Shown here in pieces: positions 41,599-59,217 of a DNA stretch of 62,427 bases. Source of the DNA: an uncultured Anaerolineales bacterium. GTDB lineage: Bacteria; Chloroflexota; Anaerolineae; B4-G1. How positions within the stretch are numbered: the first letter of the stretch is position 1; each line of letters begins with the position of its first letter. The stretch is taken from positions 1-62,427 of the forward strand of contig CAZKDJ010000001.1 in NCBI GenBank assembly GCA_964551295.1, given 5' to 3'. Below the pieces are notes generated by a model. The model was not told the DNA's origin. It saw only the letters and a list, made by a program, of their open reading frames with translations, and searched no databases. The position numbers and the translations under genes were made by a program.

Positions 41599-42906
41599 TT
41601 ACCCACGATACGCTTGCGGCACATATTTGTCCAGTTTTTGCTCTGCAAAGATCGGCTCGAAGCGCGTAAACCGCTGCAAGCCGCTCACCAGGGGCACGCT
41701 GGGCCAGTCCTCTCCGATGAGGGGGCGGGCGTAGCGCACGAAATCGTCGGTGACGTCGGTGCGCGAGGGAGCGATCCATTCCTCGGGGAACGCGCGCTCC
41801 GAGTTGGCCACCAGGCCCAACTCCACCTTGTCGTAGCGCACGCGGTAGATGTGGCCCGGCTCGCGCAGAATGGTGGCCATGTAGCCTGATCCTTCCTCCG
41901 CCGCGATAAAGGCCGCCTTCTGCCCCACCTTGTACGCCTCGTCGATGTCGATCGTCGAGGCATAGATGGCGGTGTCGCGCTGGTCGGTGCCGGGCACGTT
42001 GGCCCGCGCCGAACCGGCGGCCGCCAGCCCGACGTGGTTCAGGTAGTTGATCACCGCCTGGGCCACCGTCGTCTGGCTGGCGCCGAACTCGGTGTGGCCG
42101 AAGGAATCCTTCCGTGCGCCGATGTCGCCCACGTCAAACCCCTCGCTGACGACGACGACGGCCCGTCCCCGCTGGCGCAGCAGGTCGTTGACCCGATCGG
42201 CCATCTCCTCCATCGTCACGCCCGATTCCTTCATCAGGATCAACAGCGGCATCTCGCGCTGGGGATCGGCCAGGCGGGCGGCGGCGGGGATAAAGCCAAT
42301 CTTGCGGCCCATGGCCTGTAGCACCAGCACCGGGTCGGAGGGACACGCACCGGCGTTCTCCTGGTTCGCGTTCTGCACAATGTAGGCCCAATAGCGGGCC
42401 ACGCTGCCATAACCGGGCGTGTGGTCGATCAGCTCGAACACGCCTCCGGCCGCCAGGGCGCCGCCGACGTCGTTGTCGATTGTCTTGGGCACGCCAGTGG
42501 CGACCAGGTCCAACCCACGCTCGTGGGCCAACTGGGCCACCTTATGGGCCGTATCCATCGAGTCGTTGCCGCCGTTGTAGAAAAAATAGCCCACGTCGTG
42601 CGCCTTCAAGACCTCGATGACGCGCTCGAAATCCTCCTGCTGATGGCCCTTGAGCTTGTAGCGGCAGGTACCAATGGCGCCCGCCGCCGGGGTTGTGCGC
42701 AGCAGCGCGATCTCTTCGGGGTCCTGCGCCGAGAGGTCCAGCAACTCCTCCTTGAGCACCCCCTCGATGCCGTGGAATCCGGCGAAGATAGTGCCAAACG
42801 TCTCGGGCATCGCCAGGCAGGTCTCGGCCACGCCCTGCAGCGAGCTGTTGATCACGGGTGAAGGTCCGCCCGATTGAGCGACGACCACGTTTTTCGGTTT
42901 TGCCAT
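41599..42906 (-). CDS. Phosphofructokinase family protein, probably PPi-dependent
   Basis: AQSGGP..VIN, GGNDS (Asp at the PPi-determining position), PKTIDND and MGR..G motifs. Confidence 0.88.
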   Translation of the reverse strand: MAKPKNVVVAQSGGPSPVINSSLQGVAETCLAMPETFGTIFAGFHGIEGVLKEELLDLSAQDPEEIALLRTTPAAGAIGTCRYKLKGHQQEDFERVIEVLKAHDVGYFFYNGGNDSMDTAHKVAQLAHERGLDLVATGVPKTIDNDVGGALAAGGVFELIDHTPGYGSVARYWAYIVQNANQENAGACPSDPVLVLQAMGRKIGFIPAAARLADPQREMPLLILMKESGVTMEEMADRVNDLLRQRGRAVVVVSEGFDVGDIGARKDSFGHTEFGASQTTVAQAVINYLNHVGLAAAGSARANVPGTDQRDTAIYASTIDIDEAYKVGQKAAFIAAEEGSGYMATILREPGHIYRVRYDKVELGLVANSERAFPEEWIAPSRTDVTDDFVRYARPLIGEDWPSVPLVSGLQRFTRFEPIFAEQKLDKYVPQAYRG

Positions 42907-42918
42907 AGTGTTTCCTCC

Positions 42919-44295
42919 TTAAAAGAATCCTGGGTGCACGAATTCCCTGCTCGCCGCCAGCATCCGGTCGACCATCTCTGGAATCTCGGCCGCGTCCATA
43001 TTTTGAAGCAGCGGATCTGCCTCCAGCGCCTCGATCAGCACACCCCTGTTTCCCTCCACACAGGCCGTGACGATCTTTTCGATGTTGTTTGTGTGCAGCG
43101 CCAGGTGTTCCATCAGCTCATCCGGCAGCAGCTCGACGCGGTTTGGGGTGTACCCTTTGCCATCGTAGGTCATCATGCGCTCCAAAACCGCGCCATCGGG
43201 CACTCCTGGCAGGTTGCCGTCGTGGAACGGCACGTTGCCCACATCGTAGAAGGGCATGTCGAGGACCATCGCCGCTATGATACGAGAAGAGGCCTCCCGG
43301 GAGATGTTCAGATCGATCTCCTCCTTCCCCGCCAGCAGCTCCCGCACCTGCTGCCGCGCCCCGCCGCGCCAATGGACGAGGCGCTCCTGGGCCGTGGTCA
43401 GCAGAACGCCAAAATCTGCCCCCTTGTTGGTGTCCTCGTTGACGAACTCGGTAAAGAACTCGCCGTTGTGCCGGTCGCCACTGTAGGGCAGCACGCCGTA
43501 GCGCAGGAACAGGTTGATCTTGAGGTTGACCCGCCGCAGCTCGGGATGGTCCGAGTCGTAGAGCCGCTTGACCTCGCCGGTGATCCCCTCCTCCTCGAGG
43601 ATCTCTCGCAGCCGGGCGAATCCATCCTCCCCATCGATCTTCAAGTACTGCATCCACGCGCAGTGGTTGACGCCCAGGACGTCGAAGGTAAGCCGCTCGC
43701 GCCACTCCTTGTAGGGAAAGCCCAACGCACGCGAAAGGAACTCCATCCCGCCGTAAAGCTCGTGGCAGCAGCCGATGGTGTTGACGCCAGTCTCCCTGGT
43801 CACCGCCCGGCACAGGATCGACATGGGGTTGCTCAGGTTCAGCAGCCAGGCATTTTCCTCGGCCAGCTCCTGCATATCGCGGGCGATGCTGAACATAGCG
43901 GGGATATTGCGCGCCGCCCGAATGGCTCCACCAACGCTGATCGTATCGCCTACCGGCTGGTAGATGCCGTACTCGTACGGAATCTCCAGATCGTACTGCA
44001 TGTACTCCAACGTCCCCTGCGCAAGCGAGGTGACGACGAAGCGCGCCCCCTCGATGGCTCTCTTCTGATCGGTGGTGCTCTCGACCGCCACCTTGTTGCC
44101 GGTCAGATCAGCGACCTTGCGCGCCAACTGCGCCTGCAGCGCCAGGTTATGCCCATCGATATCCTCCAGGACGAGCACAGGCTTGTAGCGCGAACTGATC
44201 TCGTCATCCGACAGCTTGACGATAAAGTCGCGCGAGAGCGTGTACCCCCACTGCGGGCTGGCAGCCCCGATCAAGACGACCTTGAGTTGGTCCAT
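42919..44295 (-). CDS. Glycoside hydrolase family 4 (NAD+/Mn2+-dependent), uronidase-like
   Basis: VLIGAAS Rossmann motif, DLEIP..YGI.Q.VGDT, LNLSNPM, active-site CHEL, GVNH. Confidence 0.88.
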   Translation of the reverse strand: MDQLKVVLIGAASPQWGYTLSRDFIVKLSDDEISSRYKPVLVLEDIDGHNLALQAQLARKVADLTGNKVAVESTTDQKRAIEGARFVVTSLAQGTLEYMQYDLEIPYEYGIYQPVGDTISVGGAIRAARNIPAMFSIARDMQELAEENAWLLNLSNPMSILCRAVTRETGVNTIGCCHELYGGMEFLSRALGFPYKEWRERLTFDVLGVNHCAWMQYLKIDGEDGFARLREILEEEGITGEVKRLYDSDHPELRRVNLKINLFLRYGVLPYSGDRHNGEFFTEFVNEDTNKGADFGVLLTTAQERLVHWRGGARQQVRELLAGKEEIDLNISREASSRIIAAMVLDMPFYDVGNVPFHDGNLPGVPDGAVLERMMTYDGKGYTPNRVELLPDELMEHLALHTNNIEKIVTACVEGNRGVLIEALEADPLLQNMDAAEIPEMVDRMLAASREFVHPGFF

Positions 44296-44308
44296 ACATC
44301 TCCCCCTG

Positions 44309-45784
<1,476 letters not shown>

Positions 45785-45799
45785 TCGAAACCTCCTAAA

Positions 45800-45845
45800 A
45801 AGTATGCAAGTTTATAAGTAGACAAGTTCGCTGACTCGCTAATCC
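45800..45845 (+). repeat. Degenerate octamer run in the gnd-oxidoreductase spacer
   Basis: aagtatgc aagtttat aagtagac aagttcgc followed by tgactcgc. Confidence 0.55.
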
Positions 45846-45863
45846 CATACCAATTTTCGCCCT

Positions 45864-47009
45864 CTAGACCTCTTTTTCCACCGCTTTCGCAAAGGTTGAG
45901 TTTTCGACCAACTTTTTCAACTCCCGCTCGAACGCCACACTGTCGAGCGGCAGGTCGACGGGCGCGCACGTCAGTGAGGCGTACAGCATCGCGTTGGCCA
46001 GCTCGACGGAATGGACGCCCTCCTCGGCAGGCGCGATCAGTCCCGCCCCCTCCAGAATGGCGTCGGCGAAATTCTCCAGGATCGCCAGATGCTGTCCGCC
46101 GTGGCCTTCGATGTCGAACGTCTCTACCTCGACGTCCGGCTTGGCGAATGCCTCCTTCGACGTGCGCAGAAATTCAGTCACCGGCACCGCGTTGTGGGCA
46201 AAGGTGAGCCGCCCGTCCTCCAACACCAACCTGCCGTTCTCGGCGGCGATCTCGAAGCGGTTGGTGCCCGGCGCCTCCCCGGTCGAGGTGACGAAAACGC
46301 CCGTGCAGCCGTTCGGATACTCGAAATAGGCCGTCACCTCGTCTTCCACCTCGATGGCGTGCCGCTTGCCCAGGCTGCACACGCTCCACACCCGGCTCGG
46401 CATGCCGCAGATCCACTGGAACAGGTCCAGTTGGTGCGGACTCTGGTTCAACAGCACCCCGCCGCCCTCCCCCGCCCACGTGGCCCGCCAGCTACCAGAG
46501 TCATAGTAGGTTTGCGTGCGAAACCAATCCGTGATGATCCAACTGACCCGTATAAAATCCCCCAGCACGCCCTCATCCACGAGCTGCCTGATCGTCCGGT
46601 AGTGCGGATCGGTGCGCTGGTTGAACATCGCGGCAAAGATCAGGCGCTCGTCCCGGTGCGCCGCACGTTTGTGCGCTGCGATGAGCCGCTCGCAGTCAGC
46701 CTTGTGCACCGAGATGGGCTTTTCGACCAGCACGTGATGCCCGCTCTCCAACGCTGCGATGCCGATGGTCGTGTGCGTATAGTGGGGCGTGCAGATGAGC
46801 ACCGCCTCGCAGATACGATCCCTCAGCAACGCGTCGGAATCGGTGTAGGCCGGGCAGCCGTACCGCTCCCCGGCAGCACGTGCCCGCTCCGGCACCACGT
46901 CGCACACCGCCGCCAACTCTACCTTGTCGAGCTTGGCGACGTTTTCAAGGTGCAGCTGGCCAATGCCACTGACGCCGATGACGGCCAGGCGAACTGTCTT
47001 CTCGCTCAT
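45864..47009 (-). CDS. Gfo/Idh/MocA family oxidoreductase
   Basis: AVIG.SGIG, TPHY.H, HVLVEKP, GGGVLLNQSPHQLD. Confidence 0.9.
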   Translation of the reverse strand: MSEKTVRLAVIGVSGIGQLHLENVAKLDKVELAAVCDVVPERARAAGERYGCPAYTDSDALLRDRICEAVLICTPHYTHTTIGIAALESGHHVLVEKPISVHKADCERLIAAHKRAAHRDERLIFAAMFNQRTDPHYRTIRQLVDEGVLGDFIRVSWIITDWFRTQTYYDSGSWRATWAGEGGGVLLNQSPHQLDLFQWICGMPSRVWSVCSLGKRHAIEVEDEVTAYFEYPNGCTGVFVTSTGEAPGTNRFEIAAENGRLVLEDGRLTFAHNAVPVTEFLRTSKEAFAKPDVEVETFDIEGHGGQHLAILENFADAILEGAGLIAPAEEGVHSVELANAMLYASLTCAPVDLPLDSVAFERELKKLVENSTFAKAVEKEV

Positions 47010-48304
47010 TCGCCCATTCGCTGATTCGCCGGTTCGCCCACTCGGTACAACATCTCCCCCGCCCTCGGCACGACCAGCACCCCCTCCTCCTCACGCCCGC
47101 GCCACGCGTCCAGATCGACGGTGGCCGGGTCGAGGTAGCCCAGGCCCAGTCGCTCGCAGCGCTCGCGTGGGATACCGGTCGCCAGCGTGACCTTGATGCG
47201 CCGGCTCTCGATGCCGGTCTCGGCGTCGTACGTGCCGAGACCACACAGGTGGGTCGAGTGAGCCAGCACGCCCCAGGGACAATCCTTGAAGCGCTCCCAC
47301 TGCTTGAGGAAATAGTCGCGCACGTGGTAGCCGGTCTCGTCGAGCCAGCGCCCGTGAGTGTAAGAAACCTCGTCGATGTGCGGGGCGTAGATGACGATCT
47401 CGCCGCCGTCGGCGACCGCCGGCTCCATCTTGTACATGCCCTTGGCCGCCGTCCACAGATCGTCATACAGTTCCGGCATCACCGAGAGCACGCGCTTGAA
47501 CGGCTTTTCGACATATACGATGTGGTGCTGCGCCGAAAGGTCGGCTGCCGCCTCGTAGGCCGCCTCCGGCGTGCCAAAGTAAAGGCCCACCAGATCACTG
47601 TGTCCTGCGGATCCTTTGGATCCGACCACCACCATGCTAAAGCACAGCTTGAGCACATCGATGAACGCGGCCGCCCGATCGATCACCCGGCGCACGGGCG
47701 TGTGCTTGGTGCCAATAACGTGCCAGCTGGTGATCACCGCCCCCAGCCAGTGGGAAAAGTCGATCACCTCCGGCCCGGCGACGCCGGGAAAGAAGTACTT
47801 GTTGCCGCCGGAAAAGCCCACCACCTCGTGCGGAAAGGTCGGCCCGCAGATGATGACGAGGTCGTAATCGAACAGCCGCTTGTTGATCGTGACCGGCACG
47901 TCCATCGACATCAGCCCGCCGGTTATCTCCTCGATCTCGGCGGCGGGGATGGTGCCGATGTGCTTGAAGGTCGCAGGATCGCTCCACTCGTGGTTATAGA
48001 TGCCGACCCGGGCGTATTTCCCCACCCGCTCCTCGGGCGTCAGGCCAAAGAGCTGGTTGAGGTGCGCCTCGTCCATCGGCTGGTGCGTCCCCAACGCAAT
48101 CAAGTAATCGAGTGCGGTAACCTTTTCGCCGACGGCGTCGTAAAAGACGCGGAACATCAGCGGCATCGGCGCGGAGCGCGTGGCATCTGGCGTGATAAAG
48201 AGCACCCGTTTGCCGGTCACGTCGTGCTCGGCGAAAGCCGCCGCCACGATCTGCCGCACCTCGTCTGCGTTCAGCGTTCTATCCGTGTATCCTCGACCGA
48301 TCAA
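47006..48304 (-). CDS. LarA-family (nickel-pincer) racemase/epimerase; candidate mannonate/gluconate 2-epimerase
   Basis: PDATRS, IALGTH, YNHEW, FPHEVVGFSGG.K motifs. TTG start at 48304 with GGAGA SD; the track start at 48655 overlaps the HAD gene. Confidence 0.8.
   Translation of the reverse strand: MIGRGYTDRTLNADEVRQIVAAAFAEHDVTGKRVLFITPDATRSAPMPLMFRVFYDAVGEKVTALDYLIALGTHQPMDEAHLNQLFGLTPEERVGKYARVGIYNHEWSDPATFKHIGTIPAAEIEEITGGLMSMDVPVTINKRLFDYDLVIICGPTFPHEVVGFSGGNKYFFPGVAGPEVIDFSHWLGAVITSWHVIGTKHTPVRRVIDRAAAFIDVLKLCFSMVVVGSKGSAGHSDLVGLYFGTPEAAYEAAADLSAQHHIVYVEKPFKRVLSVMPELYDDLWTAAKGMYKMEPAVADGGEIVIYAPHIDEVSYTHGRWLDETGYHVRDYFLKQWERFKDCPWGVLAHSTHLCGLGTYDAETGIESRRIKVTLATGIPRERCERLGLGYLDPATVDLDAWRGREEEGVLVVPRAGEMLYRVGEPANQRMGE
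47007..47046 (+). repeat. Octamer tandem repeat forming the larA-like/oxidoreductase junction
   Basis: cattcgcc cattcgct gattcgcc ggttcgcc cactcgg; contains the stop and next start codons on the minus strand. Confidence 0.75.
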
Positions 48305-48322
48305 TCTCCGATCTCCAATCTC
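48302..48322 (+). repeat. CAATCTC heptamer x3 forming the HAD/larA-like spacer
   Basis: caatctc cgatctc caatctc; on the minus strand it supplies GGAGA and the TTG start. Confidence 0.8.
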
Positions 48323-49221
48323 TACCTTTTCCACGGCGGAATCTCGGGCAGGATGGCCTCGAACTCGGCGATCACCTGCGCCTCGTACTCGCCCGCATAC
48401 TCGCCCGCCAGGAACTTGCTCGCCGCTTCCTCGTAGAACCGCTGCCAGGATTCCTCCTCGTGACCGGGATTGATCGGGCAAAACAGCGCGTCGTTGGCCT
48501 TGGCCGCCCGCATGTCGCCCGGCGCGTCGCCGACCATGAGAATGTGATCGGGGGGATACTTGCCTTTGGCGGCCAGCTCCAGGTGCAGCGCCTTTTTGCC
48601 CTGCTCCTGCCCGGCGATGACGCGCACATACTGGGCGATATCGTGCTCCTCCCACTCCCGCTTGAGCGCCTCGTACGGCGTGGCCGAGACGACGATCATG
48701 TCGGCTTTATCGGCCAGGAACTCGAGGCTCTCGCACACGTAGGGAAAGGGCGGCACGCCGTGCACCATGTCGGCCACGGTAGCGTTGACGCCCGTCGTCC
48801 AGGCCCAGGCCGTATCCAGCTCTGGATCGGGATGCGCTTGCCTATACGCCTTGAGGCCGTCGTTGCTCTTGGGGAACGCATCGTCGGCGATAAACTCGCG
48901 GATGCGGGGCGCCTCCGGCGGCACGACATGGCGCGCCTGCACCTCCGGACGCTCGCGCAGCAGGTCGAAAACCATCACCAACGCCGGCCAGCGGTTGATG
49001 CCACGCCATTTCGAATACAGGTTGACGAACTCGGCCGCCTCGCGGGCGTACTTGGAGACCGATTGTAGGCTCCAATGCTTGATGATGTTGGGGGTAAAGC
49101 ACTCCTTGTGCTTGACCTCCATCGTGTCGAAAGCACAGCCGTCGGAATCAATGCCGACAAAGAATTCTTTTTCCGGTTCTAGCTCCGCCAAAGGGCGAGC
49201 TGCTTCAGAATAATCTGTCAT
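48322..49221 (-). CDS. HAD-superfamily hydrolase
   Basis: Motif I GIDSDG..FD, VVSAT, GQE.G.K, MVGDAPGD. GGAGG SD before ATG 49221. Confidence 0.85.
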   Translation of the reverse strand: MTDYSEAARPLAELEPEKEFFVGIDSDGCAFDTMEVKHKECFTPNIIKHWSLQSVSKYAREAAEFVNLYSKWRGINRWPALVMVFDLLRERPEVQARHVVPPEAPRIREFIADDAFPKSNDGLKAYRQAHPDPELDTAWAWTTGVNATVADMVHGVPPFPYVCESLEFLADKADMIVVSATPYEALKREWEEHDIAQYVRVIAGQEQGKKALHLELAAKGKYPPDHILMVGDAPGDMRAAKANDALFCPINPGHEEESWQRFYEEAASKFLAGEYAGEYEAQVIAEFEAILPEIPPWKR

Positions 49222-49260
49222 AAAACACCTCCAATGATTTTGTGAAGTAACCATTCACTG

Positions 49261-49312
49261 CAGAGCCGCAGAGAAATCACCCATTCCTCTGCGATCTTTG
49301 CGTCTCGGCGGT
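49261..49312. repeat. Intergenic CGCAGAG/CTCTGCG palindromic element
   Basis: CGCAGAG (49267-49273) / CTCTGCG (49287-49293) plus degenerate extra units; resembles the 35221 element. Confidence 0.55.
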
Positions 49313-49349
49313 AAAAAAGACATGGCTCAACAGTTACTTTGAACTCGAT

Positions 49350-50183
49350 CTACACCCCACTGAACGCACTGAACCCGCCATCCACCGGAACGACGACGCC
49401 GGTGACGAAGGACGATGCCGGCGAGAGCAGCCACAGTATCGCGCCGATCAGGTCCTCCGGATCGCCAAAACGGGCCATCGGCGTGTGATCGATGATCGTA
49501 CGGCCGCGCGGGGTCAACTCGCCGGTGGCCTCGTCGGTCAGCAGAAAGCGGTTCTGCTCGGTCAGGAAAAAGCCAGGAGCCAGGGCATTGACTCGAATGT
49601 CCGGCGAGTATTCCTGTGCTATGTGCACCGCCAGCCACTGGGTAAAGTTGCTCACCGCCGCCTTGGCCGCCGAGTAGGCCGGGATGCGCGTCAGCGGGCG
49701 AAAGGCGTTCATCGAACTGACGTTGAGGATACGTCCATCCCCCCGGTCAGCCATCATCTTACCAAACACCTGGCTGGGCAGCAGTGTGCCCACGAAATTC
49801 AGGTTGAACACCCATTGAATGGCATCTGCGGGCAAATCGAAAAAAGAAAGGTCAGCCGAAGTCGTGGCCTGCTTCTTGTTGCCTCCCGCGCCGTTGATCA
49901 GGATATCGACGTGGCCCCACTGCGCCAGCACGACGTCGCGGGCACCCTCCACACTGGCTTTGTCGAGCACGTCGCACTTGACGGCGATGGCCTCGCCGCC
50001 CTGAGCCACGATGTCGGCAGCGACCTTTTCGGCGGCCTCTTCAAACAGATCCAGCACGGCCACTTTCACGCCCAGCCTACCCAACGCGCGGCTCATCGTC
50101 CCACACAGCACGCCGCCGCCGCCGGTCACCGCCGCGACCTGACCCGACAACCCAAACAGACTCTCCAAGTATTCCTTATCCAC
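49350..50183 (-). CDS. SDR family oxidoreductase, D-mannonate oxidoreductase/fructuronate reductase (UxuB)-like
   Basis: VTGGGGVLC, LINGAGGN, NVSSMNA..PLT.IPAYSAAKAA, RVNALAPGFF.T.QN, HTPM.RFG. GTG 50183 with GGAGG SD. Confidence 0.85.
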   Translation of the reverse strand: MDKEYLESLFGLSGQVAAVTGGGGVLCGTMSRALGRLGVKVAVLDLFEEAAEKVAADIVAQGGEAIAVKCDVLDKASVEGARDVVLAQWGHVDILINGAGGNKKQATTSADLSFFDLPADAIQWVFNLNFVGTLLPSQVFGKMMADRGDGRILNVSSMNAFRPLTRIPAYSAAKAAVSNFTQWLAVHIAQEYSPDIRVNALAPGFFLTEQNRFLLTDEATGELTPRGRTIIDHTPMARFGDPEDLIGAILWLLSPASSFVTGVVVPVDGGFSAFSGV

Positions 50184-50231
50184 ATGACCTCCCAAGATAT
50201 GACTTTTTTCGCAGTGGCGCATAACTTGCTA

Positions 50232-50301
50232 CGTCACCCTGAGCGGAGCGAAGGGTCTCGCCGTCGCTTGCACGAGATTCCTCACTACGTTCGGAATGAC
50301 G
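50232..50301. repeat. CGTC-tagged palindromic REP-like element
   Basis: CGTCACCCTGAGCGGAGCGAAGGGTCTCG ... CGAGATTCCTCACTACGTTCGGAATGACG: terminal CGTCA/TGACG and inner GTCTCG/CGAGAT arms. Confidence 0.75.
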
Positions 50302-50339
50302 GTAAGCAACTTATGCGGTATTGCCTTTTTTCTTTCCGC

Positions 50340-51242
50340 TCACAATTCGTAGGCTCGAGCCTTGATGTACTTGCGCACCAGGTATCCATACCGCTCGTCC
50401 GTCAGGGCGAACTCGATGAAAGCGCGAAAGTAACTCTCAAAGTTGCCCACATCGTAGCGCTTTTGGTCAGGAGCGAGTGGCCAGGCGTAGACCGGCTCGC
50501 CCTGCTGGAGCAGAAGCCGGATGGCGTCCGTCAACTGGATTTCGCCCCCTCTGCCGGGCAGCGTGCGATCAAGCATCTCAAAGATGACGGGGCTAAAAAT
50601 ATACCGAGCGGCTACCGCCAACGTGGAGGGCGCAGATTCCACAGCTGGTTTTTCGACAATACTCTGTACTGCCACGGGCTCTCCCGCTACAGGCTCCACT
50701 CCGCCGATGTCGACGATGCCGCGACGATAGGTATCCTCCGGCGGCACCTTCTCCACCGCTATGACGGCCGCGGCCCTCAGTTGCTCCTGTGCAGCCATCA
50801 TGGCCCGTAACGGCGCAGCGGGGTCAGCGGCGGCAATCATCGAATCACCCAAGGCAACGGCAAAGTTATCGCCGTCCACGAACTCGGCGGCCAACGAGAC
50901 CGCGTGCCCCAGTCCTTTGGGTGGGCTCTGGCGCGTGAAAAAGAAGCGCGCCTTGCCCTCCAAATAGGCCAAGTCCTCCAACACTGCCTCGTTCCCAGCC
51001 TGCTCCAAAGCCAGCACTAGCCCGGGGTCGGCGTCCAGATGATCCTCAATGGCACGTTTGCGCTCGCCGGTGATGATCAGAAGCTGCTGCAAGCCGGCGG
51101 CCTGCAACTCCTCCACCACGTACTGGATGGCCGGCTTGCGGCCCACCGGCAGCATCTCCTTGGGCTGCGACTTGGTCGAAGGCAACAGCCGCGTTCCCAA
51201 CCCCGCCGCGGGAACAACTGCTTTAGTGATTTGTTGAGCCAT
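50340..51242 (-). CDS. galU: UTP-glucose-1-phosphate uridylyltransferase family protein
   Basis: KAVVPAAGLGTR.LP.TK..PKEMLP, RQ..PKGLGHA, VEKP, GEIQLTDA, YDVG. Confidence 0.85.
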   Translation of the reverse strand: MAQQITKAVVPAAGLGTRLLPSTKSQPKEMLPVGRKPAIQYVVEELQAAGLQQLLIITGERKRAIEDHLDADPGLVLALEQAGNEAVLEDLAYLEGKARFFFTRQSPPKGLGHAVSLAAEFVDGDNFAVALGDSMIAAADPAAPLRAMMAAQEQLRAAAVIAVEKVPPEDTYRRGIVDIGGVEPVAGEPVAVQSIVEKPAVESAPSTLAVAARYIFSPVIFEMLDRTLPGRGGEIQLTDAIRLLLQQGEPVYAWPLAPDQKRYDVGNFESYFRAFIEFALTDERYGYLVRKYIKARAYEL

Positions 51243-51278
51243 AGGTTTACTCCTTCCTGATATAGCTTAAAAGCTCAA

Positions 51279-52724
51279 CTACCCAACGAGCGGCGACAGG
51301 TGTCGCTCAAAGTGCGTCTCCAGCATCGCGGCATAGACCTGCTCGTGCGCCGCCAGCATCGCCAGCAGCCGCTCGCCGAACCGATCCAGCACCGAGCCAA
51401 AGGTCACGTGCAGCACCTGACGCGCGTCGAACTGGTCCAGCAGACCAGGTAGGTCCGCGTCATGCAGCGCATCCGGCGCGGGGACCTTGGCCAGATCCGC
51501 CGAGACGTGGTAGGTGGCCCGGTCGATCTCGTACCGCTGGCAAGCCAGGGTTAGGATCTCGCGGAAAAAGGTTGCGTCTACCTGAGCCACCGCGCGCAGC
51601 GCCTCCAGGTAGCTGGTGCCGGCGGTCTTGAGGTGTACCAACCCGTCAGTCAGCTCGGCGATTAGGGAATAGATGCTAAACTTGTCCGAGCCCGAGTGGA
51701 TGCTGAGCTTGTACGGCCCCAAGGCCCGGGCGATGGCGGCGTGTTTGGCCAACTCGGCCTTGAACTCGTCCAGGTCGCCGATATAGTCTACCCCTTTCTC
51801 GAACCGTCCCACGTAGCGCGGCGCCAGGCTGACCCACTCGACGCCCAGCCGCTTGAGCTCGCTGGCGACGTAAAAGTGCTCCTCCGGCGAGGTGGGCGTC
51901 TCCGTCTCGTCCACCGAGACCTCGAGTTCGAACCCCGATCCTGCGGGAGGATTGGCAGCCAAGTGCCGGTACATGCGCGACGCGTGCGCGACCGCGCGCC
52001 CGTACTTGGCCGCCGCGCGGTGCAGCGCCTCCCGGTCGAGCGTCATGGCCCGATCGCCCAAGTCGAACGAGTGGTTCAGATAGCGCCGCTCCATGTCCCC
52101 CAACGTGTCCTCCAGCGTGTCCCACGGCAGCGCTTGCATCTTTGCGTCCACCTCGGCCGGCGAGGCGGTGTGCGCCTCCCCATCGACATGGTCGCCGGGA
52201 TCGACGGTGTACAGAGTGAACCCTGCCGCGGCGAAGGAGTCGATATCCTGCGGCGTCTTGAGGTGATCGGCGTCGCTGCCCCACGGCTCGCACCAACCCT
52301 CCTGAAACAGGCCCCACGTGGCATCGTCCATCACCTGCTGCGGCGTGCGCCCGGTGCGGGCATTCTCGCGCACCGACTGCTGGGCAAAGATAGGCGCGAT
52401 CGTCTCGTATTTTCGCGCCGCGCGCACGTGCCCCGGCGTCGCCAAGCCCAGCCGGTCGCCGCAGCCCGCCGAGGTCTGCAACCCCAGGGATCGCGGGCGC
52501 AGCCAAGGCAAGCGCTCGCGCAGCACGGCCGCGTTCTCCGCTGTAAGCGAACAGACCAGCACATCTCCCTGCTGCTGGCCAGCAAAGCCACCCAAATCGC
52601 TACCCTGGACGAGCAACACCTTCCGGGCATCGGCGCTGCGCCGGGCCAGGGAATAAGTCGCGCCATCTAGCTCGACCTTCGAACGTGGATATACTTCAAA
52701 ACCTTCGACCACTGGAACCTCCAT
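51279..52724 (-). CDS. uxaE: Tagaturonate/fructuronate epimerase
   Basis: G.GDRLGLATPGH, FAQQSVRE..RT.R, DADH.K, E.SVDET, APRYVGRFEKGVDY, YKLSIHSGSDKF, HLKTAGTSYLEALR. ATG 52724 (TGATG coupling). Confidence 0.92.
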   Translation of the reverse strand: MEVPVVEGFEVYPRSKVELDGATYSLARRSADARKVLLVQGSDLGGFAGQQQGDVLVCSLTAENAAVLRERLPWLRPRSLGLQTSAGCGDRLGLATPGHVRAARKYETIAPIFAQQSVRENARTGRTPQQVMDDATWGLFQEGWCEPWGSDADHLKTPQDIDSFAAAGFTLYTVDPGDHVDGEAHTASPAEVDAKMQALPWDTLEDTLGDMERRYLNHSFDLGDRAMTLDREALHRAAAKYGRAVAHASRMYRHLAANPPAGSGFELEVSVDETETPTSPEEHFYVASELKRLGVEWVSLAPRYVGRFEKGVDYIGDLDEFKAELAKHAAIARALGPYKLSIHSGSDKFSIYSLIAELTDGLVHLKTAGTSYLEALRAVAQVDATFFREILTLACQRYEIDRATYHVSADLAKVPAPDALHDADLPGLLDQFDARQVLHVTFGSVLDRFGERLLAMLAAHEQVYAAMLETHFERHLSPLVG

Positions 52725-53953
52725 CAACCTCTCAAATGCACATCGGCGAAATCCAAATACCGCTCCCAATCGTAATCCGTCACATCGTGCACGCCGGGGC
52801 GAATGTGATAGCCGATGGTACCCACAACCGGCTGGCTCAGCCCGGGCATCTCGTCGACGGCCAACCCGTCGGTAGACAGCAGCCGATACACTGAGTCGGC
52901 ATGCCTGGCCGCTAAGAACTCGCCACACGGGTCGGCCCATTGATCCTCGGCCGCGCTGGCCACGTAAACCGGGCGCGGGGCGACCAACGCAATCAGCATG
53001 TGCTGATCCACTGGCAGATCGTCCTCCCGGTCATTGTACCGCTTAAAGTTTGCACAAAACCAGTGCGGAAACCTGACGTTGATCAGCTTGACCGTCTCGC
53101 CGAACCGCCGCCGCGAGAGCGCCGCTCCTCCGCAGCCCGAGTTATTCGAGATCACCAGCGCGAATCGCGCATCCCGCGCCCAGTCCCACAACGCGGCCTT
53201 ACCCAGGCGCGAGTGTCCCATCACCGCGACTCGCTCATGATCGATGTCTCCATCGGCCTCAAAATAGTCCAGCGCCCGGCTCAAGCCCCACGCCCAAGCA
53301 GCGATGGTGCCCCACTCATCTGCATCTGGTTTTGACTGCCCATCCCGGTAAAACAAGGGATGCACACCATTCTGAAAACCATCATCGAAATCCGGGTCCA
53401 GGTCGCCACAGTATACGGTCGCCAAACCATATCCTCGCTCCAAGATACGCCCGACTGGCCAGTGACGGGCGCTCACACCTCGGGAGGCCTCCGTCGCGCG
53501 ATGGTCGACCACGTGGCACGCTTCACTTTCCATCATCCAACGGGTCGAAAGCGTGATGCCAGGATCAGGGTGGATCGAGTGGTTGCCAAAAAAGTTTAAC
53601 CCGACAAAGGCGGGCACCGGCCCGGAACGATCGTTGGGCAGATAAACGAGCATATCCATCCACGGGCCGTTTTCCTCGCTCGTGAAATAGACCGACACCT
53701 CCTTACGCGTGGCTTTCCCACCGAGCGCCTCGCGGTCCATAGAGGTCACGTCAAAGGTCATCCCCTCTGGCCGACCCGGTGCCCTGCCATAAACGTGCCG
53801 CTCGAACAGCCGCAAGATTTCGGGCCTGCGCTGCGCCATCCAAGTTTGGGCATCGGCAACCCGCGTTCCATCGGAGAGGATCAGTGGATCGGGCAAGGTA
53901 TACTCAGGCACCTCTGCCTCATCCACATTGACCTCCCAGGATTCCATCGACAT
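52724..53953 (-). CDS. CE15 family glucuronoyl esterase-like alpha/beta hydrolase (no signal peptide)
   Basis: [21 protein letters not shown] nucleophile motif, SGCGGAA, HWF, PVDQH.L.AL.APRP, W.DP.GE, YH.R.G.H. Confidence 0.88.
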
Positions 53954-53966
53954 CTTCCTTTGTACG

Positions 53967-55100
53967 CTACGACCAACCCATCAACTGCGCCAATAGACGA
54001 GTGTACTCGCAAAAATTCGGCCACGATACGTCAGGCGGCACGCCGTGATCGCAACCCGGGATGAAGCCTCCCTCTTCCAGCAGGGGCGGCACCACGCGCA
54101 GCACCTCCTTGCGCATCGTCTCGCCACCGGCGGCCAAGGCGCGCTTATCCAGCCCGCCCAGGTAGGCCATCTGCCGGCCGTACTGCCGCCGGTAGGCCAC
54201 GATGTCGTTCCCGGCGGCTACCTCGACCGGAAAACAGCAGTTAAAGCCCACCTCGATCCACAGCGGCATCAACTCGGTCATGTAGCCGTCCGAATCCATC
54301 GAGACGATGGGGCAGTCGCTGCCTTTGACTGCATCCACCCACTTTTTCCAAACGGGCAGCAGAAAGCGCCGCACCATCGCCGGGGAGATCATACTGTGCA
54401 TCTTGTAGGCCATGTCTTCCCCCACCTGGACAAAGTCCAATTCCACCCGCGCCAGGATAGGCTCCAACGTCTGCAGCACGAAATCGGCCCACAAATCGAC
54501 CATCTCCTGCACAAAGGCCGGATCGTCGATCATTAACACGCAGAGATTCTCCAGGCCGCACCACTCGCGCAGTTGCCAGAACGGCCCGTTGACCGTGAGG
54601 CGCAGGGCGTAATCCCGTTCGCGCAGCGCGTCGCAGCGCGCCTCGAAATCCGCCGGAAAGCGCCGGGGATGGTGCGGATCGTAGCGCCACTTGATCCTCT
54701 CCTCCCAATCCCGCCTGGTCTGCACCGGGAAACGATGCCACTTGCGCGTGACAAAGTCCTTGGCGCTGCGGATGTAGGTGTAGTCGTACCGGTCCAATAT
54801 CTCTGTGATGGCCCCCATCCAATCTTGGACGACGTAGTGACCGTTGCGGTGCTCCAGCACCTTTTCCTCAAAGATGGGGATCATCTTGAAATCGACGCCT
54901 AGATCGACCCGTGGCCGCGTGCAAGGTTCGTATGGGATGCCCAGCACCCCCATCAGGTACTCGTACCAGGCGACGCCCTCGGGCAACCCCTGCTGATGCC
55001 AGGCTGCCAGGGTCGATTCGCGCGGCGAGCCGGGCGCTAAAGGGACCTTGTCCGGTTTGTTAAAGAGTAAAGCTGCACAGAACCGCTCCCTCTCATTCAT
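53967..55100 (-). CDS. URO-D (uroporphyrinogen decarboxylase/MtaA)-fold protein, putative methyltransferase
   Basis: M..RERF....F..PDKVP, EDMAYK...ISP..R.F..P, DSDG, EV.AGND...[20 protein letters not shown]. Confidence 0.8.
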
Positions 55101-55179
55101 GGCTAGCACGTCTGCTCAAACAAGTAGCCGCGATTTCCAAATCACGCCATGGAAAGCGCGAATACCGGATGAAGCTATC

Positions 55180-56607
55180 CTAGTCCAGCTTGTACGCCTG
55201 CTTGGCCAGACGGTAGGCCAGGTCGAGGATCATCTCCTGAGCGTCTTGCTCGTCCACGACGCCGCGCACCACCAATCCGGCCACCCAATTGGCGCTGGCG
55301 CGGCGCCACACGTCGTGGCGTGCCGGGATAGAGGGAAAAGCGCGCGTGTCGTCGTTGAATCCAGCAGTGTTGTGCACCCCGGCCGTCTCCATCACCCGAT
55401 CAAAATAGCGCCGTATCCCGTTCAGGCTGTCGTGGAACCACCAGGGTGGACCGATGCACAGCGCCGGGTAGTGGCCGGCCAACGGGGCCAGCTCGCGAGC
55501 GTAGGTCGATTCGTCCAGGGTAAAGACAACGAGCGTCAGCCGTGGGTCGTTGCCATATTTGTTGAGCAGCGGCCGTAGATTGTGGGTGAACTCGCTCGTC
55601 GTCGGTATGTCACAGCCCATATCGCGCCCAAAGCGCTCAACGATGCCCCGGTTGTGATCGCGCACCGAGCCGACGTGGAACTGCATCGTCAGTCCATCCT
55701 CGATGCTCATCCGCGCAAACTCCATGATCATGTGCGCGGTAAAGCGCCGGGCATCGTCCTCAGTGGCCTCGCCGCGCAGCGCGCGCTGAAAGATCGCGTT
55801 TGCTTCAGCCTCCGAGAGCTCCACCGTATAGGCCGAGATGGCAGCGTGGTCAGTGGACATGGCCCCCATCGATTTGAAGAACGCGCGCCGCTGCTCCAGC
55901 GCCCGGACGAAAGCGGCGTAGGAAGTCACGTCGATGCCGCTGACCTCGTTCAGCTTGTCGACGTTTTCCCGCCAGCCCTCGCGCAGCAGATTGACCACCC
56001 CGTCGGGGCGGAAAGCGGGCCGGATGTCGCCCCCCCACCCCGATTCGCGGATCGTCTTGTGAACCTCAAGCATATCGGTAGCGGCGTCGGTGGTGGATAG
56101 CACCTCGATATTGAACCGCTCGAACAGCGCTCGCGGGCGGAACTCGGGGCGGGCCAGCTTTTCCGCGACCTGGTCATAGATCGCCTGGGCCGTCTCGCCG
56201 TCCAGTTTTTGCTCGACGCCGAACATCTCGATCAGCTCGTGGGTCAGCCAGATGCCGCTGGGCGTGCCACGGAAGAGATAAAAGTTATCGGCGAAAATCT
56301 GCCAAATCTTGCGATGGTCCCGCTCCACCGGCCCGCCATCGACGCGGAGAACGCCCAGGTCCTCCAGCGGTATCCCCTGCGAGTACAGCATGCGAAAGAC
56401 GTAATGATCGGGGATGATGAGTAGATCGGCGGGCGTACCAAAGGTGGCGTCCTCGTCCACGAACAATCTGGGATCCACGTGGCCGTGCGGGCTGACGATG
56501 GGCAGGTCCTTCACCCCGTCGTACAGCTCCCGCGCCACGCGTCGCTGCGCCGGGTCGGGATCGAAGAATCGATCCGGGTCAAGTTGCCATGTCGAATGAA
56601 TCACCAA
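55180..56607 (-). CDS. uxaC: Uronate (glucuronate/galacturonate) isomerase
   Basis: PI.SPHGH.DP, PDHYV.RML.SQG, TTD, FRPD, TDH, MQ.H.G..R.HN, G.DMG.D, LAGHYP...GPPWWF.D, GF.DDTRAF.SI..RHD. Confidence 0.95.
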   Translation of the reverse strand: MVIHSTWQLDPDRFFDPDPAQRRVARELYDGVKDLPIVSPHGHVDPRLFVDEDATFGTPADLLIIPDHYVFRMLYSQGIPLEDLGVLRVDGGPVERDHRKIWQIFADNFYLFRGTPSGIWLTHELIEMFGVEQKLDGETAQAIYDQVAEKLARPEFRPRALFERFNIEVLSTTDAATDMLEVHKTIRESGWGGDIRPAFRPDGVVNLLREGWRENVDKLNEVSGIDVTSYAAFVRALEQRRAFFKSMGAMSTDHAAISAYTVELSEAEANAIFQRALRGEATEDDARRFTAHMIMEFARMSIEDGLTMQFHVGSVRDHNRGIVERFGRDMGCDIPTTSEFTHNLRPLLNKYGNDPRLTLVVFTLDESTYARELAPLAGHYPALCIGPPWWFHDSLNGIRRYFDRVMETAGVHNTAGFNDDTRAFPSIPARHDVWRRASANWVAGLVVRGVVDEQDAQEMILDLAYRLAKQAYKLD

Positions 56608-56631: not shown

Positions 56632-57474
56632 TCAACCTTTCCGCGCCCGGCAGGCCTTGATGTACCGCATCCCATATTCGTCCCGGCCCAGCAGCACATC
56701 GGCGGCCAGGATCGTATCGCAAAGGAGCGCCGGATGGCTGATGGGGCAGTTGACCCCGCACGCGATCGCCATGGCCATGAACGCCCGGTTCAGCAGGTCG
56801 CGCTCCGGCATGCCAAAGGAGACATTGCTGGCCCCCGCCGTAATGTTGGCATCCAGCTCGGCCTGCAGAAGGCGGATGGTCTCCAGCGCAACCCGCCCAG
56901 CCTGGGGCTCGGTCCCCACGGCCAACACCAGCGGGTCAAAGATGATGTCCTCGGCCGGGATACCCAGCGCGGCGGCACGGTCACGGATATTGTGGGCCAC
57001 CGCCAGGCGCTGCTCCGGCGTGGGCGGGATGCCATCGTCATCCATCAACAGGCCGATCACGGCGGCACCGCGCTCCGCCACCAGCGGCAGCACCGCCGCC
57101 AGCTTTTCCTCCTCCCCGTTGACCGAGTTGACCAGCGGCTTGCCCGGGCAAATGGCCAGCGCAGCCGCCAGCGCCTGTGGATCGAGCGTATCGACGCACA
57201 CCGGCACGTCCACCACATCGAACACCGCTTCGACGGCGCGGGGCAGCAGCGCCACCTCGTCCACGCCTGCTGCGCCGACGTTCACGTCGAGCACGGCAGC
57301 ACCGGCCTCCACCTGCGCCTGCGCCATCTCCCGCACGAGCGATAGATCACCCGCCGAAAGCGCCCGCGCCAGCTTTTTCTTGCCGGTGGGGTTGATGCGC
57401 TCACCGATGATCACTGTCGGCAGTTCTGGGCTGATGCGAACGGTACTGTTTTTTCCCCGTAGAACCGTCTCCAT
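56632..57474 (-). CDS. Pterin-binding methyltransferase (methyl-corrinoid:tetrahydrofolate MT; AcsE/MetH-pterin-like)
   Basis: IIGERINPTGKK, LDVNVG, VNSVNGE, IFDPLV, GASNVSFG.P.R. Confidence 0.88.
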   Translation of the reverse strand: METVLRGKNSTVRISPELPTVIIGERINPTGKKKLARALSAGDLSLVREMAQAQVEAGAAVLDVNVGAAGVDEVALLPRAVEAVFDVVDVPVCVDTLDPQALAAALAICPGKPLVNSVNGEEEKLAAVLPLVAERGAAVIGLLMDDDGIPPTPEQRLAVAHNIRDRAAALGIPAEDIIFDPLVLAVGTEPQAGRVALETIRLLQAELDANITAGASNVSFGMPERDLLNRAFMAMAIACGVNCPISHPALLCDTILAADVLLGRDEYGMRYIKACRARKG

Positions 57475-57494
57475 AGTCAAGTCTACCACAAGTC

Positions 57495-58130
57495 TCAATC
57501 TGCCGCCAACAACGTCTTGGCCCGGCCGGCAGCGGCAGAAGCATCAGGAGCGTAGAGATCGGCGCCGATATCCTCGGCGAAAGACTGCGTCACCGGCGCG
57601 CCTCCTACCATGACCATCACCCGGTCGCGCAATCCGGCCTCCTGCAACGCCTCGACCGTCGCCCGCATGCCGGGCATGGTGGTGGTCAGCAGCGCGCTCA
57701 ACCCGACGAAATCGGGTCGGTGCGCCTCTACCGCCTCCACGAACCCTTCGGGCGTCACGTCCACGCCCAGGTCGATCACCTCGAAACCAACGCCCTCCAG
57801 CATCATGCCCACCAAGTTCTTGCCGATATCGTGGAGGTCTCCCTTGACCGTGCCCAGGACAACCTTGCCCACCGGCTCGATGCCGGCATCCACCAAATGC
57901 GGCCGCAAAATCGCCAGCCCCGCTTTCATCGCGCGTGCAGAGATGAGCATCTCGGGCACGAACTTTTCGCCTTCTTCGAACAAGCGGCCCACCTCGGTCA
58001 TGGCTGCGATGGAGCCCTGGTATAGAATATCGGCCGCCGAGACGCCCGCCTCCAGGGTAGCCTGTACCTCGGCCTTTGTGGCAGCTTCGTCGCCATCGAG
58101 AACCGCGGCATAGATCGCTTCAATACTCAA
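57495..58130 (-). CDS. Corrinoid (cobalamin-binding) methyl-carrier protein
   Basis: Cap domain M.EVG.LFE.GE.FVPEML.SA.AM, GTV.GDLHDIGKNLV (DxHxxG), SAL.TTT, GGAP. TTG start with GAGGAGG SD. Confidence 0.93.
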   Translation of the reverse strand: MSIEAIYAAVLDGDEAATKAEVQATLEAGVSAADILYQGSIAAMTEVGRLFEEGEKFVPEMLISARAMKAGLAILRPHLVDAGIEPVGKVVLGTVKGDLHDIGKNLVGMMLEGVGFEVIDLGVDVTPEGFVEAVEAHRPDFVGLSALLTTTMPGMRATVEALQEAGLRDRVMVMVGGAPVTQSFAEDIGADLYAPDASAAAGRAKTLLAAD

Positions 58131-58160
58131 AGTCTGTCCTCCTCAATGAAAAATCCGATA

Positions 58161-59201
58161 CTACCCTTTTGAAGGCCACCGCCGGGCGGCCGCTACCAGG
58201 GCGTCGATGTTTTCAGGAAGCGTTCCCGGCGACACGCCGCCGCCGAAGGAGAGGATCATCCCCCCTCCCGGAGCCCCCTTATCCAAACACTCTTTTGCCC
58301 ACTGCGCTACTTCCGCGGGTGTCCCGCGCACGCCCAAGTCCAGCGGAGGCACGTTGCCCATCAGCGCCACGCGATGCCCCATCTTGGCCTTTACCTCAGC
58401 AGCGTCCACCTTGTGACTAAAGTTGAACACCTCGAAATTGGCCTCGGCCAGGCTCTCCAGCAGATGCGGGCAGGGGGTGTCGTTATGATAGACGCGGATC
58501 AGGCCGTCGAACGCGTCAAAGATGCGCCGCAGATGAGGGTGGATCATCTCTTCATAGTGCTGCGGCGAAACCATACCCACCAGGTCGTCCAACAGCATGA
58601 TGCCCTCCGGTTCGCGCAGCACGTCCAGCTGAGCGCGCAGCCAGCGGATGATGGATGTGGTCACCGTGTCCAGGAGCTTGGACGTCCTTTCCGGCTCAGT
58701 GGCCAGCGCCATCATCAGGGGCGTCATCCCCACCAACCAGGAAGCCGCCGTCATCGGCCCGCGGGCACAGACCATCCGGATAGCCAACCCCTGCGCCTGC
58801 AAGCGCTCGTCCATCGTCTCGTAGAGGCGCAGCACCAGGGGCATCAGCCCGTCTTCCTGCGGGTTGATCGGTTTCGCCTGCGCCCAAAAGGCCAGGTCGG
58901 GCACCAGGGGCTCGATGGAGGGCGGCCGGTCGGTGTAAAAACGCATCTTGGTGCCGAACGCCGAAGGCTCGGCTGCCATGCCGTACTCCACCCAAAAGCC
59001 GGGAATCCAGGCCACATCGGGAAAGCGCTCCAGCAACCCCAAGTTGATATCCAACCACTTTTCGGGAAAGAGAAAATAATCCCGCGTGTCGATGCCCGCG
59101 TAGCCGGGCAGCCACGGGCTATCGACGATCAGACCCACGGGGATCCGCTCCGGCTCCTCCAGCCGCGCCGCTTGCTTAAAGAGTTCCCAAGGTGTATCCA
59201 T
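58161..59201 (-). CDS. URO-D/MtaA-fold protein, putative substrate:corrinoid methyltransferase
   Basis: A...EP.RIPV, E.SAFG, GP.TAA..L.G, D...G.VSP..YEE, L.GNVPP, GGG.IL..G. ATG 59201. Confidence 0.82.
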   Translation of the reverse strand: MDTPWELFKQAARLEEPERIPVGLIVDSPWLPGYAGIDTRDYFLFPEKWLDINLGLLERFPDVAWIPGFWVEYGMAAEPSAFGTKMRFYTDRPPSIEPLVPDLAFWAQAKPINPQEDGLMPLVLRLYETMDERLQAQGLAIRMVCARGPMTAASWLVGMTPLMMALATEPERTSKLLDTVTTSIIRWLRAQLDVLREPEGIMLLDDLVGMVSPQHYEEMIHPHLRRIFDAFDGLIRVYHNDTPCPHLLESLAEANFEVFNFSHKVDAAEVKAKMGHRVALMGNVPPLDLGVRGTPAEVAQWAKECLDKGAPGGGMILSFGGGVSPGTLPENIDALVAAARRWPSKG

Positions 59202-59217
59202 CTCTATACTCCTTCCA

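Follow-up and report, generated by a model that had tools for sequence, protein, structure and literature searches.

The GntE route of uronate catabolism was proposed in 2012 and its epimerase was assayed in 2020 (PMC7583248; PMC6978723), and the route is so far known only from gene context in Thermotoga maritima and from assays of purified epimerases. The T. maritima gene order is given as gnd-uxaR-uxaE-uxaD-gntE-gntK and that of the fuller UxaR-regulated operon as aldH-pelB-gnd-uxaR-uxaE-uxaD-gntE-gntK (PMC3750489). With added nickel-pincer nucleotide (NPN), the T. maritima epimerase TM0442/GntE2, whose structure is PDB 4NAR, interconverts D-mannonate and D-gluconate (PMC7583248). Extracts of Lactobacillus suebicus phosphorylate mannonate first and then epimerise 6-phosphomannonate to 6-phosphogluconate; the kinase candidates in this organism are GntK homologues, and its TM0442 homologue is expressed on galacturonate (PMC6978723). 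Here we describe a gene module of the GntE type, located at positions 41,599 to 56,607 of a 62,427-nucleotide stretch (the window) from an uncultured member of the Anaerolineae (phylum Chloroflexota), in which no gntK was found and a phosphofructokinase (PFK) paralogue and a haloacid dehalogenase (HAD) family protein are encoded instead. The window covers the first 62.4 kb of a contig that is 75.5 kb long and belongs to a metagenome-assembled genome (MAG) of 4.5 Mb (368 contigs, 85% complete), hereafter G000, whose closest protein matches bear 'Anaerolineae bacterium' names; it was compared with three genomes of the same genus (congeners G001–G003), with a set of 41 relatives and with a 151-genome sample of the class.

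All six genes on which the first-pass annotation of this DNA had built its proposal are present and co-directional on the minus strand, as judged by family scores. These are uxaC, encoding glucuronate/galacturonate isomerase (55180..56607; NF002794, 525 bits against a cut-off of 387; PF02614); uxaE, encoding tagaturonate/fructuronate 3-epimerase (51279..52724; PF16257, 505 bits); a short-chain dehydrogenase/reductase (SDR) gene for a UxuB/UxaD-like fructuronate reductase or D-mannonate oxidoreductase (49350..50222; PRK08277, 390 bits, cut-off 281); a gene of the LarA family for a GntE-like, NPN-dependent hexonate 2-epimerase (47006..48304); gnd, encoding decarboxylating 6-phosphogluconate dehydrogenase (44309..45784; TIGR00873, 753 bits, cut-off 427); and a cluster-specific paralogue of the pyrophosphate (PPi)-type PFK family (41599..42906; PRK14072, 364 bits, cut-off 273). 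Interspersed among them are genes which that annotation did not list, for a CE15 esterase, a GalU-like protein, a HAD protein (48322..49221), a GFO/IDH/MocA oxidoreductase and a GH4 glycosidase. Mannonate dehydratase, 2-keto-3-deoxygluconate (KDG) kinase and the aldolase are indeed missing from the window: there is no UxuA or Eda-type match genome-wide, and the four PfkB-family matches are all on other contigs.

We consider the module to be an operon-like catabolic unit that converts glucuronate and galacturonate to ribulose-5-phosphate by a GntE-type route, with a probability of roughly 0.6. By family assignment, UxaC would isomerise the uronates, UxaE would interconvert tagaturonate and fructuronate, the SDR would reduce fructuronate to D-mannonate, and Gnd would decarboxylate 6-phosphogluconate. 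Beyond family assignment, all mechanistic steps are drawn from comparative genomics. Homology and synteny suggest for the LarA-family protein a C2 epimerase activity that depends on the nickel-pincer cofactor and takes the manno to the gluco configuration, and the PPi-type PFK paralogue, together with the co-inherited HAD protein, may perform the phosphorylation for which T. maritima uses GntK. The phosphorylated substrate might be gluconate, mannonate or fructuronate, the epimerase seeing the free or the 6-phospho acid as the case may be. The earlier proposal of a T. maritima-like route was thus right in outline, the uxaE-SDR-epimerase-gnd linkage mirroring the operon, but has to be amended for the kinase step, the role of PFK, the lar cofactor genes and the KDG side.

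The epimerase is translated from TTG 48304, which is preceded by GGAGA, and is 432 aa long; GTG 48655 was not taken as the start because the open reading frame beginning there overlaps the HAD gene and the family alignment begins only at its residue 126. The best solved relative, and best PDB match, is 4NAR (E = 1.9e-68), with lactate racemase reaching only 3.7e-9. The NPN-binding residues R75, K184 and H200 of LarA correspond to R41, K164 and H180 of GntE2 (PMC7583248), and their counterparts R43, K169 and H185 are kept in the epimerase and 11 orthologues (12 sequences). The catalytic D40, H74, H159 and K288, matching D72, H108, H174 and K298 of LarA, are likewise kept in the epimerase and its orthologues. 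The substrate signature of LarAH groups 18–20 consists of an E-V/S loop after the catalytic histidine, a tryptophan in helix alpha-11 and A/V in alpha-14 (PMC7583248); the epimerase carries the E160-V161 loop and the alpha-11 tryptophan (W284), both conserved in 12 orthologues. On the match to 4NAR and the NPN-binding and catalytic residues, the first-pass view of the LarA homologue as GntE-like holds: it is a member of the GntE clade, in a separate subgroup, with predicted epimerase activity. Membership in LarAH18 was rejected, as the protein scores 211 bits against the 500-bit cut-off of NF052594, the sole NCBIfam model for this clade; all 26 diverse homologues likewise fall below the cut-off, including the GntE2-type representative, whose score is no higher.

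The step from gluconate to 6-phosphogluconate, assigned to GntK in the first-pass annotation, is left without a gene by searches of the genome for SKI-type and FGGY gluconokinases. The SKI-type model (TIGR01313) has no match in the genome, and of the two FGGY genes present, one encodes a true xylulokinase (XylB, 578 bits) and the other is XylB-like but truncated. Among the 41 relatives, none has a gntK_FGGY match above the curated cut-off. Two epimerase-positive genomes without the PFK/HAD pair (G033 and G095) encode a gluconokinase-like FGGY protein directly beside the epimerase, and another epimerase homologue has an AAA_33 kinase alongside; neither an orthologue of the FGGY kinase of G033 nor an AAA_33 kinase was found in G000. 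The genome encodes two further LarA homologues. One, on contig C14 (8294-9628), resembles malate/lactate racemases, with 345 bits to the MAR model, and has genes for malic enzyme and phosphoenolpyruvate carboxykinase close by; the other, on contig C42 (about 18386-19024), has an in-frame TAG. An FGGY kinase gene 4 kb from the homologue on C14 was considered as the second half of a gntE-gntK pair and ruled out, the kinase being the 578-bit xylulokinase and the LarA protein there being racemase-like.

The distribution of the PFK paralogue follows that of the epimerase. Matches to it in the 151 class genomes are bimodal, with orthologues at 62–80% identity in 32 genomes and canonical PRK14072 paralogues at 39–47% in others; nine genomes hold a canonical 39–47% paralogue alongside the orthologue. 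Of the 32 carriers of the orthologue, 31 have the epimerase (within 13 kb on the same contig in 22), the exception being a contig-edge fragment, and the 87 genomes of the class sample without the epimerase hold no intact orthologue. Among the 41 relatives, the PFK orthologues (n = 18) are confined to epimerase-positive genomes except for one 116-aa fragment, and the HAD orthologues (n = 17) are found in epimerase-positive genomes only. The final fructose-6-phosphate (F6P) step given to PFK in the first-pass annotation is not upheld as a housekeeping role for this enzyme: G000 holds two further PFKs on contig C4, and the cluster PFK is a paralogue tied to the epimerase.

Gene order gives the same picture. 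In relatives the module reads UxaC-UxaE-GalU-GHMP kinase-SDR-HAD-epimerase-(GFO)-Gnd-PFK, in other families of the class LacI-UxaE-SDR-HAD-epimerase-Gnd-PFK, and in most loci examined the SDR gene adjoins the GntE-like gene or is separated from it by one HAD gene. Outside the phylum, we found UxaE-SDR-Gnd-GntE-PFK-HAD-Tkt (Tkt, transketolase) in a Thermotogota MAG, UxaE-SDR-GntE-PFK-HAD in a Pseudothermotoga MAG and UxaC-UxaE-SDR-Gnd-GntE-PFK-HAD in a Caldatribacteriota MAG. The epimerases of these three MAGs score 508–571 bits against 4NAR (GntE2), and PFK followed by HAD stands at the gntK position; aligned over their full length with those of G000, the out-of-phylum PFK shows 53% identity and the out-of-phylum HAD protein 39%. 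The gntK-less form with PFK and HAD is thus spread over Chloroflexota, Thermotogota and Atribacterota, and the alternation of PFK/HAD with kinase genes is what a non-orthologous displacement of gntK at its own locus would look like. On these comparative genomic grounds alone, we give about even odds to the PFK paralogue and the HAD protein supplying the phosphorylation step in place of gluconokinase. That the pair constitutes an undescribed, probably PPi-linked system replacing gluconokinase in the GntE route is proposed more tentatively. Two possible forms can be envisaged: a PFK-family sugar-acid kinase acting on fructuronate, mannonate or gluconate, or a HAD phosphotransferase for which a PFK-made bisphosphate serves as phosphoryl donor.

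The PFK keeps the TIDND, MGR and SEG motifs (GGNDS and PKTIDND are seen) and the PPi-type Asp104 and Lys124. Compared with the canonical paralogues of the class, it has a 5–12-residue insert directly after TIDND, Leu in place of Lys164 and Thr in place of Tyr249; given the bimodal identities and this group-specific insert and substitutions, it is not orthologous with the canonical PPi-PFK of the class. The HAD motifs are intact and their residues invariant: DxD (D25/D27), S179/T181, K210 and GDxxxD (D232/D236). Its structural model (pLDDT 91.6) has the subfamily-IA fold with a Rossmannoid core and an enlarged helical C1 cap, consistent with the family assignment of the gene (PF13419; HAD subfamily-IA phosphohydrolase-like). 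No solved structure in the PDB was matched by sequence, and Foldseek retrieved phosphoglycolate phosphatase, beta-phosphoglucomutase, CbbY and mannitol-1-phosphatase with TM-scores of just 0.4–0.6.

Several observations weigh against a kinase role for the pair. Both arginines that hold the 6-phosphate in classical PFKs, R243 and R252, are conserved in this PFK, so that F6P or sedoheptulose-7-phosphate (S7P) may be its substrate; the known substrates of PFK-family enzymes are ketose phosphates rather than aldonates. The HAD protein is assignable only generically as HAD-IA by sequence and structure model, and its Atlas label is 'HAD family'. One genome (G106) has the HAD gene and no PFK orthologue, and a Ratteibacteria-like contig (L083) carries KduI-SDR-Gnd-PFK-HAD-nucleotidyltransferase-GHMP kinase with no LarA gene on its 12 kb; the nucleotidyltransferase there is GDPGP1-like. 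The argument is further limited by G037, where the order is SDR-epimerase-Gnd-Tkt-Tal (Tal, transaldolase), without kinase, PFK or HAD. With R243 and R252 kept, the PFK is expected to have retained the ability to bind substrates that end in an anionic group, be it phosphate or carboxylate, and fructuronate may be viewed as the carboxylate analogue of fructose-6-phosphate.

The best-surviving alternative is that the route is exactly that of T. maritima and the linked PFK an ordinary PPi-dependent F6P or S7P kinase serving lower pentose-phosphate and glycolytic flux, perhaps in place of transaldolase, with the gluconate kinase unlinked or unassembled; the HAD protein would then be a side-product phosphatase, for example of the CbbY-like pentulose-bisphosphate repair type. 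PPi-PFKs of Methylococcus and cellulolytic clostridia also phosphorylate sedoheptulose-7-phosphate. This alternative draws on the PFK score above the PRK14072 PPi-PFK cut-off, on the retention of the catalytic residues, R243/R252 and PPi markers, on CbbY and other sugar-phosphate phosphatases among the structural matches of the HAD model, and on a genome just 85% complete. Tkt follows PFK-HAD in the Thermotogota MAG, and the Tkt-Tal pair follows Gnd in G037, the genome without PFK and HAD. Furthermore, searches of all four genus genomes gave no transaldolase-family gene, but 13 of the 17 PFK-orthologue-positive relatives still carry one. The idea that the PFK is linked to the module because it replaces transaldolase was rejected, as the two do not complement each other within the family. 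Users of xylose depend on the same lower pathway, yet only epimerase-positive genomes hold the orthologue, and the canonical PPi-PFK is also retained in the nine genomes mentioned above; nor does any of the 41 relatives have an above-cut-off gluconokinase, and PFK-HAD occupies the position of gntK after gntE. Taken on both sides, an ordinary PFK appears unlikely. It should be noted that transaldolase/FSA-family genes, lacking in all of G000–G003, occur in 33 of the 41 relatives overall; the non-oxidative pentose phosphate pathway of the genus may run via a sedoheptulose-bisphosphate step.

The epimerase assignment has its own difficulties, which chiefly concern the cofactor. Profile searches of the 85%-complete assembly found neither LarC nor LarB nor an above-cut-off LarE, and in nine of the 22 relatives with the epimerase none of the three lar genes was found; five of the nine (G017, G020, G026, G033 and G037) are 91–100% complete. 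The epimerase is just 38% identical to the GntE2-type representative P0199 (571 bits against 4NAR), and in a maximum-likelihood tree of 38 homologues, in which most forks are unsupported, the GntE2-type proteins fall outside its subgroup. The phylogenetic comparison with GntE called for earlier thus yields a largely unsupported tree, and no orthology claim is based on it; the nearest solved and characterised relative by PDB search is GntE2. As to the lar genes, all three congeners (G001–G003) carry them, larE, larB and larC being adjacent on a single contig in G003, and larC is present in five of five closed or near-closed class genomes with the epimerase, 3–10 kb from the module in three. When the LarB, LarC and LarE proteins of G003 and those of their two flanking genes were searched against G000 with tblastn, no fragments were recovered; since the flanking genes are missing as well, the whole neighbourhood is taken to be unassembled rather than the lar genes selectively lost. 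We assume that the nickel-pincer biosynthesis genes lie in the unassembled 15% of the genome. The first-pass expectation of larBCE elsewhere in the genome is made plausible by the congeners and the closed genomes, but not by the assembly itself. In addition, the LarB model matched nothing in G000, although in each of 14 control genomes it picks up PurE as well; the purE region therefore appears to be unassembled too.

If, owing to the missing cofactor, the LarA homologue were inactive, or if it acted on another 2-hydroxy acid, mannonate would have to exit otherwise. The five nearly complete lar-less relatives, the moderate identity to GntE2-type proteins and the promiscuity of some LarA homologues (PMC11770544) speak for such a possibility. 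However, all NPN-binding and catalytic residues are kept, in the lar-less genomes as well, the SDR-epimerase-Gnd linkage spans phyla, the lar genes are found in every congener and adjoin the module in closed genomes, and UxuA was not found in the genus, all of which makes this explanation highly improbable.

The first-pass annotation had declared the route free of the KDG branch (UxuA/KdgK/Eda-free). The claim stands for UxuA, which was not found in any of the four genus genomes and which occurs in only 5 of the 41 relatives, all five of them epimerase carriers. Family searches of the G000 assembly found neither an Eda-type aldolase nor a clear KdgK. For these two enzymes, nevertheless, the claim is not established: 2.4 kb beyond the end of the window, the contig carries a gene for KduD (TIGR01832, 378 bits, above the cut-off) and one of the KduI/IolB family, and one congener has Eda. 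Because the KDG-making KduI/KduD pair is encoded next door, freedom from KdgK and Eda is doubtful, and the organism probably has a KDG branch.

Between 62.4 and 41.6 kb, all genes are on the minus strand with short spacers. In order of transcription, they encode a Zn-dependent alcohol dehydrogenase (ADH; split), a GFO/IDH/MocA protein and an aldo-keto reductase; a corrinoid methyl-transfer set of a URO-D-type methyltransferase, a B12-binding protein and a pterin-binding methyltransferase; uxaC, a second URO-D-like gene, the CE15 esterase and uxaE; the GalU-like, SDR, HAD, LarA-like and GFO/IDH/MocA proteins; and gnd, GH4 and the PFK-like protein. Upstream on the same contig are genes for a LacI regulator, an Opp-type ABC importer, the KduI/IolB-family protein, KduD, an oligogalacturonate-lyase-like protein and an amidohydrolase. 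This context is one of pectin and glucuronoxylan degradation. The glucuronoyl-esterase-like CE15 gene (52724..53953; PF22244, 107 bits), also found upstream of uxaE in the relative G005, is translationally coupled to uxaE, its stop overlapping the uxaE ATG as TGATG, which fixes the uxaE start. The GFO/IDH/MocA oxidoreductase gene (45864..47009) is a variable insert between the epimerase gene and gnd, shared with G039 and G123, and the GH4 glycosidase (42919..44295; PF02056 and PF11975) is a candidate alpha-uronidase. The GalU-like sugar-1-phosphate nucleotidyltransferase gene (50340..51242; TIGR01099, 270 bits, under the cut-off of 327) is an accessory member of the module of the family, as indicated by synteny with relatives. 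In several of these, a GHMP sugar kinase gene with the galactokinase signature sits between the GalU-like and SDR genes (L029 4565-5626, L034 3341-4360, L036 6675-7808, L035 12350-13513); here there is only a 117-bp spacer (50223-50339), and no orthologue was found elsewhere in the genome.

It is very doubtful that all or part of the module is anabolic or serves salvage, with uronates turned into UDP-uronates for polysaccharides of the envelope by a GHMP anomeric kinase together with the GalU-like transferase, or alternatively drawn from 6-phosphogluconate by HAD dephosphorylation and reversal through the epimerase, SDR and UxaC: the GalU-like gene inside the module, the GHMP kinase after GalU in relatives, the GHMP kinase and GDPGP1-like nucleotidyltransferase after PFK-HAD on the unrelated Ratteibacteria-like contig and the phosphatase role this would give the HAD protein are set against catabolic neighbours (CE15, GH4, the oligogalacturonate-lyase-like gene, KduI/KduD and the uptake ABC system), modules without GalU and GHMP in other families and phyla, the missing GHMP kinase in the G000 module, and the lack of any role for Gnd and PFK in that direction.

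The LacI-family regulator gene (contig C1, the contig of the window, 73752-74756; L007 13752-14756) heads the uptake and catabolic cluster; with orthologues directly upstream of uxaE or uxaC in G013, G039, G123 and G167, its product is likely the regulator of the module. The corrinoid methyl-transfer set, comprising two URO-D/MtaA-like proteins, a B12-binding protein and a pterin-binding methyltransferase, brackets uxaC (53967-55109 and 56632-59282) near the CE15 and GH4 genes and is a candidate anaerobic O-demethylase for 4-O-methylglucuronate; our literature search found no described corrinoid O-demethylase system for this compound. The Zn-dependent ADH at the end of the window consists of two overlapping frames (61611-62420, and contig C1 62083-62670; L007 1611-2670), with ADH_N and ADH_zinc_N domains and stops between them, and represents a frameshift, a pseudogene or an assembly error.

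That the same rare route operates in a different phylum, as the first-pass annotation had suggested, agrees with the GntE-type module found here in Chloroflexota, but taken alone is no novelty, since homologues of gntE beyond the Thermotogae had been noted already in 2012, as cited in PMC6978723. The GntE route is already known, whereas its gntK-less form with a dedicated PFK paralogue and HAD protein is new, not having been found in the literature searched. For a fructuronate or mannonate kinase, the search returned only the L. suebicus study (PMC6978723), and none of the matches listed linked UxaE to Chloroflexi. In the anoxic habitats in which Anaerolineae, Atribacterota and Thermotogota abound, uronic acids of pectin and glucuronoxylan are a major carbon source, and the GntE route, which delivers uronates to the pentose phosphate pathway with no net use of redox cofactors, is attractive for engineering. 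If a PFK-family enzyme with a HAD partner does replace gluconokinase, the PFK family would gain a new reaction, likely a PPi-saving step, and hundreds of genes now automatically annotated as 'PPi-PFK' or 'lactate racemase' would have their labels corrected.

Of the described systems, the module most resembles that of T. maritima: in a setting of pectin and uronate use, both link UxaC, UxaE, an SDR fructuronate reductase, Gnd and an NPN epimerase of the GntE clade, with GH4 nearby. It differs in having no FGGY gluconokinase, in place of which the PFK paralogue and HAD protein are encoded; in its epimerase, which forms a separate subgroup at 38% identity to the GntE2-type representative; in the interleaved HAD, GalU-like and GFO genes; and in its LacI-type regulator. 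With L. suebicus it shares UxaC, UxaE and UxuB followed by entry at 6-phosphogluconate without UxuA, KdgK or KdgA, and the order of phosphorylation and epimerisation may, as there, differ from that of T. maritima; unlike L. suebicus, however, G000 has a PFK-family candidate kinase and no GntK homologue, and downstream the pentose phosphate pathway and PPi-PFK rather than phosphoketolase. The first steps, as far as mannonate, are those of the canonical isomerase pathway (UxaC, UxuB/UxaB, UxuA/UxaA, KdgK, KdgA/Eda), and KduI/KduD feed KDG on the same contig, but UxuA was not found in G000 and its three congeners, nor Eda and a clear KdgK in the G000 assembly. Finally, the cluster PFK has the fold and length of the PRK14072 PPi-PFKs (PDB 3K2Q and 3HNO), is about 45% identical to them and shares Asp104, Lys124, TIDND, MGR and SEG, whereas its insert and substitutions set it apart as a separate orthologue group, the distribution of which tracks that of the epimerase.

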